The notes under the pieces: generated by a model
Told to the model about the DNA's origin: nothing
The model's input: only the letters and a program-made list of their open reading frames with translations
Database searches by the model: none
Part shown: positions 54,354-60,210 of the stretch, in pieces
Layout: each line of letters opens with the position of its first letter
Numbering within the stretch: the first letter of the stretch is position 1
Made by a program: the position numbers and the translations under genes
Source: Eubacteriales bacterium
GTDB taxonomy: Bacteria; Bacillota; Clostridia; Eubacteriales; Anaerofustaceae
DNA: 64,000 nucleotides
NCBI GenBank assembly: GCA_024685545.1
Contig: JAIKVR010000009.1
Location: 19,828-83,827, forward strand
Direction: 5' to 3'

Positions 54354-55520
54354 TCAGGACTTGACGGCCTTGGCGATTCGGTCGAAAGCGGTCTTGACGA
54401 CAGACAGCGGGCATGCCATGTTGACCCTGATGTAGCTGTCGCAGTTGTCGACGAAGCTCCTTCCGGACTCGATGACGACTCCGCCCTGTCCGATCTTCTT
54501 CTCAAGTTCATCATTGGAGTATCCGTAAGCTCCCAGTCCGATCCATGCCAGATAGGTGCCTTCGGGGATAGTGAAGACTGCATCGGGCAGTTCCTTGGCC
54601 AGGAATTCCTTTACATAAGCGAAGTTGCCGTCCAGATACTCTCTGAGCTCATCCAGCCAGTAAGCGCCTTGGGCGTACGCGGCTTTTGTCGCGGCGACGG
54701 ACAGCGGGTTCGATGATCCTCTGCCTCCGTTTGCCTGATAAGCCTTGCGTATCTCTTCATCGCGGATGAAGATGTTCGAATGTCCGTTGCCGGCCAGGTT
54801 GAAGGTCTTGCTGGGGGCCGTGCAGGTGACAATATTCTTGTCATCGGGGAAGAGTGAGGCGATGGGGGTGACCTTCTTGTCGCTTCTTGTGAGGTCAGCA
54901 TGGATCTCGTCAGATACGATAAAGACTCCGTTAGCCTGACAGATTTCATGGATCTTCGTCAGCTCTTCCACTGTCCAGATACGGCCTGTCGGGTTGTGCG
55001 GGTTGCACAGGATGAACATCGTGGTCTTGGGATCCTTGCACTTTTCTTCAAAATCCTCAAAGTCCATGGTGTAATAGCCGTTGGTGTTGATGAGCCTGTT
55101 GTAAAGGGCGTTTCTGCCTTCCGCCTGCTGAATGGCACCGAAGAAAGGTCCGTAGGAAGGAGTGGTGATGATGATATTGTCGCCTTCTTTGGTCAGAGCT
55201 CTTACGAGCACGTTGACGGCGGGAACGACACCGTTGGAGATGACGATCTCTTCTTTTTTGACTTCCAGACCGAAGCGCGTCTTGTACCAGTTGATGATAT
55301 TGTCATAATAACTGTCATCAAAAATACCGGTATAGCCTAGAATCTTTTTTTCGAGTCTTTCGTGCATTGCCTCGAGGATCTCGGGGGCTACCGCGAAGTC
55401 CATATCTGCGATGAACATCGGAATGGCATCGTCGGAAGCGTCGGGATAGAATCTCTTCATTCCGTCAAACTTTACGGAATCAGTTCCTTCCCTTGGAATG
55501 ATCTGGTCAAAATTATACAT
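54354..55520 (-). CDS. MalY/PatB family PLP-dependent C-S lyase (cystathionine beta-lyase type aminotransferase)
   Basis: REGTDSVKFD...MFIADMDFAVAPEI...LCNPHNPTGR...SPSKTFNLAG, with the PLP Lys in SKTFN. A TTGCAT-17-TATCAT promoter lies about 45 nt upstream. Confidence 0.85.
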   Translation of the reverse strand: MYNFDQIIPREGTDSVKFDGMKRFYPDASDDAIPMFIADMDFAVAPEILEAMHERLEKKILGYTGIFDDSYYDNIINWYKTRFGLEVKKEEIVISNGVVPAVNVLVRALTKEGDNIIITTPSYGPFFGAIQQAEGRNALYNRLINTNGYYTMDFEDFEEKCKDPKTTMFILCNPHNPTGRIWTVEELTKIHEICQANGVFIVSDEIHADLTRSDKKVTPIASLFPDDKNIVTCTAPSKTFNLAGNGHSNIFIRDEEIRKAYQANGGRGSSNPLSVAATKAAYAQGAYWLDELREYLDGNFAYVKEFLAKELPDAVFTIPEGTYLAWIGLGAYGYSNDELEKKIGQGGVVIESGRSFVDNCDSYIRVNMACPLSVVKTAFDRIAKAVKS

Positions 55521-55745: not shown

Positions 55746-56507
55746 TCAGTCAGTTATCTCTCCGGGCTCATATACAAATGTCTGCAGAAACTGTTTTGCG
55801 CGTTCTGTAGACGGCTGTGCGAAAAACTCTTCCGGTTCATAGCTCTCCTCGACGATAAGCCCGTTTTCCATGAATACTACACGGTCCGCGATCGCTTTGG
55901 CAAAAGACATTTCATGGGTGACAATAAGCATCGTGCTTCCGGAACGCGCCAAAGACAGCACCACATCGAGGACTTCCCTCACCATCTCGGGATCAAGCGC
56001 AGCGGTTATCTCGTCGAGCAGCATGATCTCGGGATGCATGCATAGGGCTCTTACTATGGCTACGCGCTGCTTCTGTCCTCCGGAAAGCTGCCTCGGATAA
56101 TCATTTCTGCGATCCAAAAGGCCTATTTTCTCAAGAAGAGCTGCCGCTTCCTCCTGAACTTCGGTCTTGGAACGCTTCTGGACTTTTACCGGGGCGAGTG
56201 TTATGTTCTCCATCACTGTCTTATGAGGAAAAAGATCATAGCTCTGGAAGACCATTCCTATCTTCTGCCGCACGAGCGAGATATCCTTCGTGTTTTTCAA
56301 TACCGGTTCCCCGTCAAGAAGGATCTGTCCACCCTGGATACTCTCAAGGGCATTGACACAGCGCAGCAGGGTGCTTTTCCCGCAGCCTGAAGGACCGATG
56401 ATGACGATCACTTCGCCTTTCCGCACGGAGAGGCTGAGATCCCGGATCACCGTATGTTCGCCGTAAGCTTTCCTCAAATGTTCGATCTTCAGTAAAGCAT
56501 CATCCAT
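55746..56507 (-). CDS. amino acid ABC transporter ATP-binding protein
   Basis: Walker A GPSGCGKST, signature LSGGQKQRVAI, Walker B MLLDE. Polar-amino-acid (GlnQ/TcyN-like) type. Confidence 0.9.
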   Translation of the reverse strand: MDDALLKIEHLRKAYGEHTVIRDLSLSVRKGEVIVIIGPSGCGKSTLLRCVNALESIQGGQILLDGEPVLKNTKDISLVRQKIGMVFQSYDLFPHKTVMENITLAPVKVQKRSKTEVQEEAAALLEKIGLLDRRNDYPRQLSGGQKQRVAIVRALCMHPEIMLLDEITAALDPEMVREVLDVVLSLARSGSTMLIVTHEMSFAKAIADRVVFMENGLIVEESYEPEEFFAQPSTERAKQFLQTFVYEPGEITD

Positions 56508-57184
56508 TACTCAGCCCACCTTTTCTCCAGATACGCAGCCGCTCTTCCGATCGGCCAGCAGACAATAAAGTACATCAGGAACACCACGGCGAATACGCCG
56601 AAAGCCGCATTCGGCGAAGTCCGCCTGTTGGCTTCGATGATCTGCTGGGCGACTTTCAGTACTTCAACCATCCCTATCATCATTATCAGGCTGGTCGTTT
56701 TGATAATTCTGGTGATCAGATTAATGGAAAGAGGGATCAACCTCCTCACTGTCTGTGGCAGGATCACATATTGGAACACGCTCTTTTCATCCATTCCCAG
56801 CGCACGCGCGCTGTCGTACTGGATCTTTGGAATGCTGATAAGCGCGCCACGGACCAGATCTCCCATTTCAGCGGTGCCCCAGAAACTGAAGACGATGACA
56901 GCGGCATATTCTGCGGACAGATTCCAGCCGAAGACCCTGGTGGTCCCGAAATAGACGATGAAAAGCAGCACCATCTGCGGCATGATGCGGACGGTCTCAA
57001 GATATACACGGAATATCCCCTGTATTATCCTGTTCTTCCCCGCCATGAGGATCCCCATAAAGATGCCGAGGAGGATGCTTACCGCAGATGAGATTAGGCT
57101 GACACGGGCGGCTACCCATAATCCTTCCAGAAGGCGCGCGAAATTCTTCCCTTTGAACAGAACGTCAATCCCCAAACTCTGCAT
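56507..57184 (-). CDS. amino acid ABC transporter permease
   Basis: HisM/GlnP-like permease with an EAA-type loop (DSARALGM...PQTVRR). ATG 57184 follows GGAGG. Confidence 0.85.
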   Translation of the reverse strand: MQSLGIDVLFKGKNFARLLEGLWVAARVSLISSAVSILLGIFMGILMAGKNRIIQGIFRVYLETVRIMPQMVLLFIVYFGTTRVFGWNLSAEYAAVIVFSFWGTAEMGDLVRGALISIPKIQYDSARALGMDEKSVFQYVILPQTVRRLIPLSINLITRIIKTTSLIMMIGMVEVLKVAQQIIEANRRTSPNAAFGVFAVVFLMYFIVCWPIGRAAAYLEKRWAE

Positions 57185-57824
57185 GCCGGAGCCTCCTTTC
57201 CAAAACATAGCCCAGAAGCGATACGGGCAGCAGCATTATCAGGTAGAAAATGACCAGCAGAGTCAGGCACTCCAGCGTCTTCGCGTACATGCCGATAAGA
57301 TCCTTTGCGGTAAACATGAGATCCATAAGGCTGATCGTTGAAAACACACTGGTCTCCTTCAACAGGAAGATCACATTCGCAAGGATGCCGGGCACGCTGT
57401 ATGTGACTGCCTGCGGGAAAATCACAAATCGGAAAGCCTGATAGCGGTTCATGCCTAGGCTCTCGGCACTCTCTTCCTGTATTTTGGCGACGCTCTCCAG
57501 ACCGCTGCGCAGTGTCTCCGACATATAAGCCCCGCCTAGCAGTCCAAGACCGAGGCTTCCGCAGAATTCAGCGGAGAGTCTGATGCCGATCTTGGGCAGT
57601 GCAAAGTAAATGAAGAAAAGCTGTACGAGAAGAGGCGTATTGCGGAACAGTCCGACATATGCCTTCACTATCGTCCGCAGAACCGGTATTCGGAAACGGA
57701 TGATCATCGCGCAGACCAGCCCTATCGCCAAAGCCAGGAAAACGCCATACCAGCCGATCCGTAACGTAAGAAACAGCGCGTCCCTGTACAGCGGCAGGTA
57801 CTGTCTTATTATTTCCATATCCAT
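57165..57824 (-). CDS. amino acid ABC transporter permease
   Basis: Second HisM/GlnP-like permease (EESAESLGMNRYQAFRFVIFPQA). Confidence 0.85.
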   Translation of the reverse strand: MDMEIIRQYLPLYRDALFLTLRIGWYGVFLALAIGLVCAMIIRFRIPVLRTIVKAYVGLFRNTPLLVQLFFIYFALPKIGIRLSAEFCGSLGLGLLGGAYMSETLRSGLESVAKIQEESAESLGMNRYQAFRFVIFPQAVTYSVPGILANVIFLLKETSVFSTISLMDLMFTAKDLIGMYAKTLECLTLLVIFYLIMLLPVSLLGYVLERRLRHAEFGD

Positions 57825-57871
57825 TGCCGATCATCTCCAATCTTTCATGACAAGCAGCAGTCATGCCTGCT

Positions 57872-57915
57872 TTGCCTATCACTGCTGCCTATAAACGGAC
57901 AGCAGTGACAGGCAA
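57872..57915 (-). promoter_or_regulatory. intercistronic 16-bp stem-loop between the binding-protein and permease genes
   Basis: On the minus strand: TTGCCTGTCACTGCTG-(12-nt loop)-CAGCAGTGATAGGCAA with one G-U pair and no U-tract after it. Confidence 0.6.
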
Positions 57916-57950
57916 AACTAATTTGATTTCAGTATATTCCCTGATCCGGA

Positions 57951-58811
57951 TCACTTGACAACGCCGCCTTCAACAACGAGCGTATCCTCATAGTCTTTAC
58001 CGTAGGTATCCAGCAGGGTCTCTTCGTAATCCTTATGGAAGAAATTCTCTTCGCCCAGAGCTTTTATCTCATCATTCAGCCAGTATAAAAGGCTCTCATT
58101 CCCTTTGGTCACTGCCGGAGCGATAGTATCCTGGCTTCCGAGGGACGGTATCCCCACAACATACCCTTCATTCTCAATGGCGAATGCGATCACTTCCGTA
58201 TTGTCGTTTGCCCAGGCGACACCGTTGCGGTTCTCAAACGCGGTTTTCGCAGCCGCATAGGTATCATATTTCTGAAGCTTAATCTCCGGATAGTTCTTTT
58301 CCAGATATGTTTCTGCCGTTGTCCCGGAGATTACGATCACTTCATCGTCCGGCCCGATCTGATCCAGGCTTTCGATTACCGCGTCCGAGGGAGAGACGAT
58401 GCCAAGCGCCACGTTCATATACGGGAGTGCAAAATCCACTTCTTCTGCCCTTTCCGGTGTAACTGTGAAATTGGCGAGGATTATATCGACTTTCCCTGTC
58501 TGAAGATATTCTATCCGGTTTGCAGCTTCTGTCGAGACAAAATTAATGTCCACTCCGAGATCTTTACCGATCCTATAAGCAAAGTATACATCATAGCCCT
58601 GATAATCCCCATATTCATCTACATATCCAAACGGGCTTTTATCCGAGAAGACACCGATATTGATGACTCCGCTCTTTTTTATCTCATCCACTGTTCTGTA
58701 TGCCGGTGCTGACGGATCGCCGCTTCCGCTGCCGCATCCGGCCAGAAGAACAATGATCAATCCAAAACTCAGTATTGCCGCGCTTACGCGCTTAATTGTA
58801 ATTCTTTTCAT
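57951..58811 (-). CDS. amino acid ABC transporter substrate-binding lipoprotein (family 3 SBP)
   Basis: Signal peptide with lipobox LLAGC and a type-3 SBP pattern (GVFSDKSPFGY...DIILANFTVTPERA). GGAGG SD. Confidence 0.85.
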   Translation of the reverse strand: MKRITIKRVSAAILSFGLIIVLLAGCGSGSGDPSAPAYRTVDEIKKSGVINIGVFSDKSPFGYVDEYGDYQGYDVYFAYRIGKDLGVDINFVSTEAANRIEYLQTGKVDIILANFTVTPERAEEVDFALPYMNVALGIVSPSDAVIESLDQIGPDDEVIVISGTTAETYLEKNYPEIKLQKYDTYAAAKTAFENRNGVAWANDNTEVIAFAIENEGYVVGIPSLGSQDTIAPAVTKGNESLLYWLNDEIKALGEENFFHKDYEETLLDTYGKDYEDTLVVEGGVVK

Positions 58812-59077
58812 AATTTTCCTCCATGATATGATTGCTCAGTGTTTTTCACTGACTGGCCCGACAAGAGCCTGCTGAAAATGATTCCTTGTGACTTATCTTC
58901 CGTATAAACGCTGATTTTCGCATCTGCATCTGAAGACGGGAAATGGCGTTTCCCGATCAGAAAAGTCATCCATACAATACGTTTTCCTGCATAGAACTTA
59001 AGGCAAGGACTATCCATTCACGCGATAAACTGCAATTCCTATGTTTTAGTTTCCGACATATCGCCACCTCAGCTCTA

Positions 59078-59138
59078 ATAATACAAAACTCCCGCCTGTT
59101 AGGATACTGATCAGTCAGTTTCAAAACAGGCGGGAGTT
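59078..59138 (-). terminator. strong intrinsic terminator inside the ABC-operon leader (attenuator candidate)
   Basis: On the minus strand a perfect 14-bp stem AACTCCCGCCTGTT (59138-59125) / AACAGGCGGGAGTT (59100-59087) with a 24-nt loop is followed by TTGTATTATT. Confidence 0.75.
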
Positions 59139-59349
59139 ATCAAAATGATATTGTTTGCTCAGAATCTAGCCGCAAAATCATCCGCCTGTGTCCCCGGGAC
59201 ACAGACAGCACATGTTATGATTATGAACGGAAGACCGGAGACTTACAGAGTTCACAGCGTTATTAAGTCCTTTCAATGGCATATGCGTTTCGATGAATAT
59301 TCCATTTGCCCCAGCTGAAGAAACACACAATTCCTATCAGCTCGGTATG

Positions 59350-59379
59350 AATATACCAATTCCAAGCTGTATTTGTCAA
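59350..59379 (-). promoter_or_regulatory. near-consensus promoter heading the ABC-operon leader
   Basis: On the minus strand: TTGACA (59379-59374), an 18-nt spacer, then extended -10 TGgTATATT (59358-59350). Confidence 0.6.
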
Positions 59380-59538
59380 TAGCAGAGCGCACAATAATTA
59401 ATTATCCGGTTCTGACATATAATGGACCCTGTGGCTTTACAACCATTCTCAGCCATTTCTGTAGGATATCATGGATCACTGAGGCCCTTTATATGACAGG
59501 ACCTTTTCAGATATCCCTTTTCTGATGACTGTTAAGGA

Positions 59539-59952
59539 TTATTTCCTGAATGCGTAGCTTTTCAGTATGGTTATTATCTCCCGCATGGATTTCCTGTCGT
59601 TTTCATCCATTTTCTTGCTGTCGGAAATACTGTATGACTCTTTCCCGGCACCGGAAAAGTATATCGAGAGTTTATTCCTAGGCGCATCGAGAACGATTTC
59701 ATCTGTATAGCCGAGATTGTTCCACTCTCTGTAATTCGATCCGTCAAGCGCTTTCAGCAGTTCTTCCCTTACGTGCTTTCTCCTGGACAGTCTAGCCCTT
59801 TTCCTTCTGATCCTTGAGCCCCAGTAAGCCTGTTTTTCAGCTTTGATTATGCAGGAACCGTTCTCCCTGATTTCAAGGATGATCTCCTCATGTCCGCCGT
59901 CCATCCCGCCGACTTTATTGAACTCCGCCCGCGTCAAAGTCATATCTGCCAT
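59539..59952 (-). CDS. hypothetical protein (137 aa, central Arg/Lys-rich stretch)
   Basis: ATG 59952 follows GGAGGAG. The sequence MADMTLTRAEFNKVGGMDGGHEEIILEIRENGSC...RIRRKRARLSRRKHVREELL... matches no family I recognise. It has its own TGaTATAAT element about 75 nt upstream. Confidence 0.5.
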   Translation of the reverse strand: MADMTLTRAEFNKVGGMDGGHEEIILEIRENGSCIIKAEKQAYWGSRIRRKRARLSRRKHVREELLKALDGSNYREWNNLGYTDEIVLDAPRNKLSIYFSGAGKESYSISDSKKMDENDRKSMREIITILKSYAFRK

Positions 59953-60150
59953 CTTCTCCTCCATGATTTATCAATAACACATGTATGCTCGTAACTACAG
60001 TTATGATTCATTAACATCACTATATTATGATTATATCAAGCAGCCCGATAATCCAGATCATGAAATGAACTCGGTCAAGGGTGCTTACTGTTTACTTAAT
60101 GAGAGATTGAACGAACCGAACCCAACATATGATGATGGAGAAAAGCTGAT

Positions 60151-60189
60151 AATAAACTCTGGTCGGTGTCATAGGAGTACCGATCAGAG
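60151..60189 (-). terminator. putative terminator after the HipA-like gene
   Basis: On the minus strand: CTCTGATCGG-(13-nt loop)-CCGACCAGAG (one mismatch) followed by TTTATT. Confidence 0.5.
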
Positions 60190-60210
60190 TCACCTTCGAT
60201 TTCATCTGCA

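Follow-up and report, generated by a model that had tools for sequence, protein, structure and literature searches.

What turns on the amino-acid ABC-transporter operon that follows the longest gene-free gap in a 64 kb stretch of DNA from a Eubacteriales bacterium (here called the window), when a strong terminator stands between its promoter and its first gene? The gap (58812–59541) is the largest in the window without open reading frames (ORFs) of at least 90 aa (730 nt, versus 447 nt for the runner-up), as an earlier sequence-only reading had claimed, and all elements of the leader that it holds are read on the minus strand. That reading had called the region an ‘unclassified attenuator/riboswitch (or sRNA)’. 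Its first term stands, as does the lack of a curated family; the riboswitch and the small RNA (sRNA) are no longer favoured, the reading having overlooked an ORF at 59255–59178 that is led by a Shine–Dalgarno (SD) sequence and carries clustered Cys codons. Here we give a cautious preference to the view that the leader attenuates transcription by way of a translated leader peptide, with the ribosome gauging charged tRNA-Cys.

The promoter that had been proposed, TTGACA-18-TGgTATATT (59379–59350), lies where it had been placed. Its hexamers agree with the consensus at 11 of 12 positions, the extended TG is present as well, and no other promoter-like site within 57800–60400 scores better. Its upstream end, CTATTGACA (59382–59374), occurs in a single copy in the window, is found within 600 nt upstream of the gene for the solute-binding protein (SBP) in 46 of 77 orthologous loci, and has 0 occurrences in 550 kb of other locus DNA. 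Together with the adjoining GATAGGAAT, the promoter also aligns with three loci that carry a second subtype of leader (L009, L026, L064; see below). Judged by the CTATTGACA motif, the window promoter thus appears orthologous to the operon promoter of the relatives. Between the terminator and the SBP start the promoter scan found no promoter-like site of usable quality, which supports the earlier suggestion that no convincing promoter lies there and that the operon probably depends on read-through.

The overlooked ORF begins behind an SD whose duplex with the anti-SD (−9.3 kcal/mol) equals those of the SBP and patB genes, and it has a further in-frame AUG at 59213. Its Cys codons fall inside the 5′ arm of the first hairpin (59208–59197; hairpin 1 in Table 1), and its UGA stop (59180–59178) sits just past segment 2, ACAGGCGG (59189–59182). 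Clusters of this kind are rare: four-codon stretches that have three or more Cys and an in-frame AUG number only three in the 128 kb of the two window strands, and dinucleotide shuffles of the 205-nt leader yield one in 1.2% of cases (p = 0.012). A second cluster, at 63201 on the minus strand, was rejected, being the out-of-frame reverse strand of the start region of a TnpB gene. The ORF region is identical in a second strain (L081). Leader peptides gave no match in Pfam or NCBIfam. Two longer ORFs of the gap, of 69 and 50 aa, were rejected as protein-coding genes, with the TTG start at 59330 lost in L081 and insertions and deletions in the 3′ part.

Around this ORF, pairing and folding energies bear out the 1:2 / 2:3 / 3:4 arrangement of an attenuator that had been read by eye. 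Hairpin 1 had been given as 59204–59186; it is present and is longer than that, with 12 pairs over 59208–59182, and in the promoter/terminator scan it scored as terminator-like; we regard it as a candidate anti-antiterminator and pause hairpin for RNA polymerase (RNAP). The complementarity of 59189–59182 to 59133–59126 is exact when checked base by base, against a chance expectation of ~35/4^8 = 5e-4 for an 8-nt match between the two arms. A helper helix is nested within this antiterminator (AUGAU, 59181–59177, with AUCAU, 59149–59145), and the 2:3 structure is the minimum free energy (MFE) fold (−24.6 kcal/mol) once segment 1 is masked and segment 4 is absent. The terminator that had been described has its arms, AACTCCCGCCTGTT (59138–59125) and AACAGGCGGGAGTT (59100–59087), joined by 14 perfect pairs; the whole hairpin reaches −33.2 kcal/mol, and its 24-nt apical part makes a 5-bp hairpin of its own. 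The 276-nt leader RNA as a whole folds better than its shuffles (z = −5.1, with 0 of 200 shuffles as good). Segment 2 with its tail (ACAGGCGGAUGAUUU, 59189–59175) and segment 4 with its tail (ACAGGCGGGAGUUUU, 59099–59085) form direct repeats on the minus strand that are 80% identical, a hint of local duplication which suggests that the three-hairpin layout may have arisen from a copy of the terminator half. A reading of the leader as a repeated or mobile element was rejected: the terminator arm sequence is unique within the window, and the TnpB gene points away from the leader at a distance of 3.7 kb.

From this layout we infer a course of translation, stalling, termination and read-through of the following kind. 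Transcription from the conserved operon promoter would start near 59343, the predicted start site, 88 nt 5′ of the GUG, and RNAP may pause at hairpin 1 and the AUGAUUUUG behind it so that the ribosome catches up. With Cys plentiful, the ribosome would reach the stop and cover 59195–59168, all of segment 2; if the ORF were left untranslated, hairpin 1:2 would form and sequester the same segment. With segment 2 blocked, segment 3 would pair with segment 4, the terminator would form, and a transcript of ~260 nt would end near 59080. A shortage of Cys-tRNA would make the ribosome stall with UGC in its A site, covering the RNA to about 59198 and hence all of segment 1; segment 2 would then pair with segment 3 directly upon synthesis of the latter, and with this antiterminator in place RNAP would continue across the 275 nt that are left and enter the genes for the SBP, the permeases and the ATPase.

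Table 1. Positions of the leader elements, the regulated operon and the neighbouring genes in the 64 kb window.
Feature	Position	Strand	Details
Promoter	59350..59382	−	CTATTGACA with −35 TTGACA 59379–59374; 18-nt spacer; extended −10 TGgTATATT 59358–59350
5′-terminal RNA hairpin	59310..59345	−	CCGAGCUGA...UCAGCUGGGG; in MFE and centroid structures
ATAGGAATTG copy 1	59328..59337	−	just 3′ of −10; candidate operator half-site
SD of leader ORF	59268..59274	−	GAAAGGA
Leader ORF	59178..59255	−	25 codons plus stop; GUG start; encodes VNSVSLRSSVHNHNMCCLCPGDTGG*
Candidate regulatory codons	59199..59210	−	UGC UGU CUG UGU (Cys-Cys-Leu-Cys); inside 5′ arm of hairpin 1
Hairpin 1 (segments 1:2)	59182..59208	−	12 pairs including 3 G-U; CGG loop; −19.8 kcal/mol; followed by AUGAUUUUG
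Putative antiterminator (segments 2:3)	59126..59189	−	ACAGGCGG (59189–59182) pairs exactly with CCGCCUGU / CCGCCTGT (59133–59126)
Predicted intrinsic terminator (segments 3:4)	59076..59138	−	14-bp perfect stem; tail UUGUAUUAUUA (59086–59076)
Distal leader	58812..59075	−	without usable promoter; non-coding
Second mini-ORF	59039..59059	−	AUG UCG GAA ACU AAA ACA UAG (MSETKT*); six codons; just 3′ of terminator
ATAGGAATTG copy 2	59033..59042	−	3′ of terminator; exact copy; holds stop codon of second mini-ORF
SBP_bac_3 lipoprotein gene	57951–58811	−	part of regulated operon 55746..58811
Two permease genes	57165–57824 and 56507–57208	−	part of regulated operon
ABC ATPase gene	55746–56507	−	part of regulated operon
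PatB-family C-S lyase gene	54354–55520		after operon; 376.8 bits (NCBIfam cutoff 340)
141-aa ORF, HipA_C-like kinase and Xre-type helix-turn-helix (HTH) genes	59539–61562	−	toxin-antitoxin-like pair upstream of the ORF
IS605-type TnpB/OrfB gene	63219–64000	+	PF12323 and PF01385; runs off the window end

Whether a Cys-reading leader is plausible for this operon can be judged from its relatives. These comprise 80 loci whose SBPs are 70–88% identical to that of the window, mostly from metagenome-assembled genomes (MAGs) of Lachnospiraceae and Oscillospiraceae, and with L081–L083 they number 83. Over half of the 80 share a leader of ~235 nt directly upstream of the SBP gene (e.g. L034 2709–2950, L010 2742–2976), for which we define the CCCRM family through an alignment (A1) and a covariance model (R1) of the leader core; R1 matches 47 of the 83 loci, each time 5′ of the SBP gene and in its orientation. 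Its parts are, in order, a promoter inside CCTATTGACAaAGTAGG, a strong SD (AAAGGAG), an invariant ATG and an ORF of 30–40 codons in which a Cys run (...CCCRM..., SCCRM, CCMCCCRM, MCMCCCCRM or CCCCMCCCRM), ~10–15 codons after the start, is followed by Arg-Met, always as CGA-AUG. The stop of the ORF is kept through TGA/TAA exchanges, and insertions and deletions between ATG and Cys run come in multiples of three. Counted over 77 loci, Cys-cluster ORFs with an SD stand upstream of the SBP gene in 37, as against none of the 77 reverse-complement controls.

The family leader also includes a large structured domain. The 3′ arm of its outer helix (CUCCCGGGCA with UGCCCGGGAG) belongs at the same time to a short terminator hairpin that is followed by U7, and a long-range closing helix joins the 5′ end to the sequence after the U-tract (columns 5–15 with 248–258, 90% paired, with covariation). 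Over the 28 sequences of the seed alignment the structure is paired in 94% of its cells, versus 29–49% in slid controls, and nine pairs show compensatory change, one of them in the closing helix as CG:11, UA:11 and UG:6. Mean energies are −39 kcal/mol for the antiterminator domain and −13 kcal/mol for the terminator, and the design is read as two-state, in that a translating ribosome would have to melt the stable antiterminator so that the weak terminator forms. Rfam, Pfam and NCBIfam do not contain the family leader, and we found no description of it in the searchable literature, where Cys-run leader ORFs appear only for mycobacteria and other Actinobacteria (PMC1262725) and for cysS of the Rhodobacterales (PMC8632094).

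Several variants of these leaders were seen among the relatives. The second subtype (L009 2685–2975, L026 2690–2975, L064 2580–2870) has two Cys runs (..MSCCCM..CRMCCCM) and, 3′ of the −10, an operator-like palindrome, TCCTAT-N7-ATAGGA. L057 has, at about 2820–2870, a 14-codon SD-led ORF (MRNTCFCCMKGTVY) without an obvious terminator. Two loci (L023 954–1089 and L063 2068–2201, both on the minus strand) bear a second R1-like leader on the opposite strand, before a gene for a Cys/Met pyridoxal phosphate (PLP) enzyme (PF01053, O-acetylhomoserine-sulfhydrylase-like). In the ORF of that leader the SD, the ATG, CGAATG and TCCCGG are retained, whereas a Cys run is lacking (MKNYFLELLRSNFRFGRMCNSR...).

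What, then, is the sensor in the window? We consider it most likely to be a translating ribosome that reads charged tRNA-Cys, and not a ligand-binding aptamer, because the Cys codons of the SD-led ORF are themselves segment 1, its stop lies at the end of segment 2, and the relatives use Cys-rich leader ORFs. All the sequence-level traits by which a trp/his-type attenuator can be tested are found here, namely an ORF with an SD, a Cys cluster in segment 1, mutually exclusive pairings and the placement of the stop. Domain matches confirm the SBP, two permeases, ATPase and PatB lyase that had been listed, and the earlier guess of sulfur-amino-acid or cystine uptake fits both the lyase and the Cys-run leaders of the orthologous operons. 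In L010 (2980–4635), as in some other relatives, SBP_bac_3 and an NlpA/MetQ-like lipoprotein domain form one protein (551 aa), a fusion that would agree with a sulfur-amino-acid substrate.

A number of observations weigh against the attenuator reading, the first of them from the family just described. A search with the family profile (nhmmer), over the whole window and over the leader alone, gave no leader match, and R1 run with filters off reached at best 6.8 bits in the window, on the wrong strand, compared with 54–159 bits for the members upstream of SBP genes. One near-match of the profile (30527–30487) falls within an ORF of 279 aa that is read from the opposite strand, and was rejected as chance. 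Local alignment of the window leader with the family was likewise not significant, its maximum score being reached by 31 of 200 shuffles and its mean by 7 of 200. Homology to the family leader is thus unusable as support, because the window leader matches neither the profile nor R1. It lacks the CGA-AUG and the CUCCCGGGCA/UGCCCGGGAG antiterminator pairing of the family, reading UGC UGU CUG UGU CCC GGG GAC, where CCCGGG is the tip of a local hairpin, and it lacks the complement needed for the closing helix, its GAUUCUGAGCA-like words being direct repeats.

By these comparisons the window leader appears to lie outside the CCCRM family, with only the promoter motif held in common. Beyond sharing the orthologous operon and the CTATTGACA motif, the two leaders are alike in their plan: each has an SD and a short ORF with clustered Cys codons some 10–15 codons from its start, and in each one arm of the intrinsic terminator, the 5′ arm, is shared with an alternative pairing. 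They differ in that the window has a trp-like layout of three hairpins with a strong terminator, whereas the family has two states and a weak terminator with U7. The window leader would therefore be a lineage-specific rebuild of the same logic.

Other points of the same bearing lie in the leader itself. About 130 nt of its 5′ part and 275 nt of its 3′ part have no role in the model. The ORF starts with GUG at an SD spacing of 11–12 nt (usually 7–9 nt), its internal AUG at 59213 has no SD, and its Cys codons number only three and are not consecutive. The U-tract of the terminator tail, UUGUAUUAUU, is interrupted. With −33 kcal/mol the terminator is far more stable than the antiterminator (about −20 kcal/mol), and read-through must therefore rely on kinetics. 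Moreover, leader-peptide attenuation, the textbook mechanism of enterobacteria, is regarded as rare among Firmicutes, in which T-boxes and riboswitches prevail; the polymerase of B. subtilis outruns its ribosomes (runaway transcription), and this species is reported to be insensitive to translation-based transcriptional control (PMC2965389; PMC8237595). C. difficile apparently does without runaway transcription (PMC8237595), which makes a leader-peptide mechanism plausible in Clostridia.

A final difficulty is that the window leader is known from one species only, in two near-identical copies, so that neither covariation nor codon conservation can be computed. The species is represented by one Eubacteriales bacterium MAG (P0001) and two short Logan contigs. 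Against the 80 genome loci (blastn, word size 7) the leader had no homologue, and none was found in 120 metagenome loci; a metagenome scan for the pattern ACAGGCGG..CCGCCTGT..ACAGGCGG picked up only a repeat family of one metagenome that has no relation to the leader. The next relative, L083, whose SBP is 84% identical, already carries a CCCRM family leader. The other copy, in L081, is 97% identical (7 differences over 646 aligned nt), and all seven differences fall outside a core of ~210 nt (59290–59080). Both substitutions in the 5′-terminal hairpin either lie in the loop or keep a pair (U-G to U-A). The distal leader is taken to be non-coding because L081 carries an 11-nt insertion and a 1-nt deletion there; the strongest SD of the whole leader (GAGGUGG, −12.3 kcal/mol) belongs to the second mini-ORF.

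The explanation that competes best with an attenuator, though we think it unlikely, is that the leader is a decayed relic: an ancestral Cys leader would have been lost by rearrangement, the ORF and hairpins would be leftovers, a repressor at ATAGGAATTG would govern the promoter, and the terminator would dampen expression constitutively. The weak translation signals and the faint, non-significant similarity to pieces of the family leader would suit such a history, and so would the surroundings. The DNA upstream looks accessory (the orphan 141-aa ORF, the HipA/HTH pair, the IS605 TnpB), and the Rrf2 gene that adjoins the operon in 25 relatives is missing from the window, where the accessory-looking DNA at 59539–61562 appears to take its place. 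As to the repressor, the word ATAGGAATT occurs only twice in the window, both times in the leader, on the same strand and within the ATAGGAATTG copies, and L009, L026 and L064 have TCCTAT-N7-ATAGGAAT at the position that matches copy 1. The two copies are a candidate operator for an Rrf2/CymR-like repressor. Their possible likeness to the half-site of B. subtilis CymR serves as a lead only. Beside ATAGGAATTG, CCTATTGACA...TAGG can be named as a candidate site for the Rrf2 regulator of the relatives. One would not expect a relic, however, to preserve the exact 8-nt complementarity between segments 2 and 3, a terminator stem of 14 perfect pairs and an in-frame stop placed right where segment 2 ends. 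Nor would its core be expected to stay invariant between two strains whose flanks differ, and a constitutive terminator of −33 kcal/mol with no promoter downstream would silence an intact four-gene operon.

We regard it as improbable, more so than a relic, that the leader is an undescribed riboswitch or a protein- or tRNA-binding attenuator, in which the 130-nt 5′ part or hairpin 1 would bind the effector and the ORF would be incidental. The RNA is strongly structured, as the z of −5.1 indicates, and its unexplained 5′ domain holds a stable hairpin. The Rfam scan that had been proposed assigned no family: with Rfam 15 at gathering thresholds the whole window yielded tRNA only, and at E ≤ 10 the region 58700–59700 gave as its best hits AaHKsRNA54 (23.5 bits, threshold 37) and rnk_pseudo (21.3 bits, threshold 55), both on the terminator stem only. 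An unknown class would be compatible with this; yet the leader shows no conserved domain that resembles an aptamer, its sequence is not shared by any of the relatives, and it would take a coincidence at about the 1% level for the Cys codons and the stop to sit where they do. The orthologous operons, moreover, use leader ORFs, and no riboswitch or T-box turned up in the 20 related loci scanned (nothing credible at gathering thresholds, nor at E ≤ 10 for the L010 leader).

To an independent trans-acting sRNA of ~260 nt, running from the 59379 promoter to the 14-bp terminator while the operon uses a weak unrecognized promoter of its own, we give very little credence, for although a strong promoter and a strong terminator do define a discrete transcript, and attenuator-derived trans-acting sRNAs such as rnTrpL exist (PMC6614838), the promoter motif is that of the operon in the relatives, no promoter was found 3′ of the terminator, the RNA is not conserved beyond the species, and a function in trans would in any case be compatible with one in cis.

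If the leader is indeed a Cys-sensing attenuator, how does it compare with those already known? With the enterobacterial leaders trpL, hisL, leuL, thrL and pheL (Rfam Trp_leader, His_leader) it shares regulatory codons in segment 1, three exclusive hairpins and a stop placed so that a ribosome that does not stall masks segment 2. It differs from them in its amino acid (Cys), its host (a clostridial Firmicute) and its target, an uptake ABC transporter and not a biosynthetic operon; it has no sequence or Rfam similarity to them, and it carries a long extra leader on both sides. The polycysteine small ORFs of mycobacteria (Canestrari et al., bioRxiv 10.1101/834739) and the Cys leader peptides predicted for Actinobacteria (PMC1262725) rest on the same principle, that stalling on clustered Cys codons reports cysteine supply to the operon genes that follow. 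The mycobacterial ORFs are leaderless and act on translation, unmasking a downstream ribosome binding site (RBS), with no intrinsic terminator (bioRxiv 10.1101/834739), whereas the window has a 5′ untranslated region and an SD, and its output would be an intrinsic terminator that lies 275 nt ahead of the SBP RBS.

Closer in form is the upstream ORF uORFC-8-2 ahead of cysS in Rhodobacterales, with tandem Cys codons in a first stem followed by a terminator stem and a run of U, which has been proposed to act by ribosome-mediated attenuation (PMC8632094). That element belongs to Alphaproteobacteria, precedes cysS, has two stems and bears no sequence relation to the window leader, where the Cys codons number three and the 2:3 antiterminator is explicit. 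The same task is carried out in Clostridia, which have been described as using Cys T-boxes and S-boxes, by the Cys T-boxes of cysK, cysP1/2 and ubiG, where termination ahead of genes for cyst(e)ine transport and metabolism is relieved when tRNA-Cys is uncharged (PMC2940859). A Cys T-box binds the uncharged tRNA directly and needs no translation (PMC2940859); the window shows no T-box features and no match to the Rfam T-box.

The leader family of the relatives is more notable than the window element itself. We tentatively propose, with somewhat less than even confidence, that in gut and rumen Clostridia (Lachnospiraceae, Oscillospiraceae) a large family of translated leaders governs an ABC operon for sulfur amino acids, as well as the gene of at least one Cys/Met PLP enzyme, with an architecture that turns over fast (the R1, second-subtype, L057 and window types), the window being an independent rebuild on a conserved promoter. 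If this holds, transcription–translation coupling would be routine for amino-acid sensing in this branch of the Firmicutes, where T-boxes and riboswitches have been credited with that role. A Cys-codon attenuator ahead of a sulfur-amino-acid transporter would in itself point to functional coupling in Clostridia, would show how fast an attenuator architecture can be replaced while sensing logic and promoter stay fixed, and would provide a handle on cysteine sensing in abundant, little-studied gut anaerobes. The annotation is corrected as well, the leaders of the relatives being at present unannotated intergenic DNA.

Two minor features of the DNA upstream may be added. The 141-aa ORF has no match in Pfam or NCBIfam. 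Between its stop and the leader promoter lies a 21-nt inverted repeat (59503–59483 / 59428–59408), the arms of which are 81% complementary with 54 nt between them.

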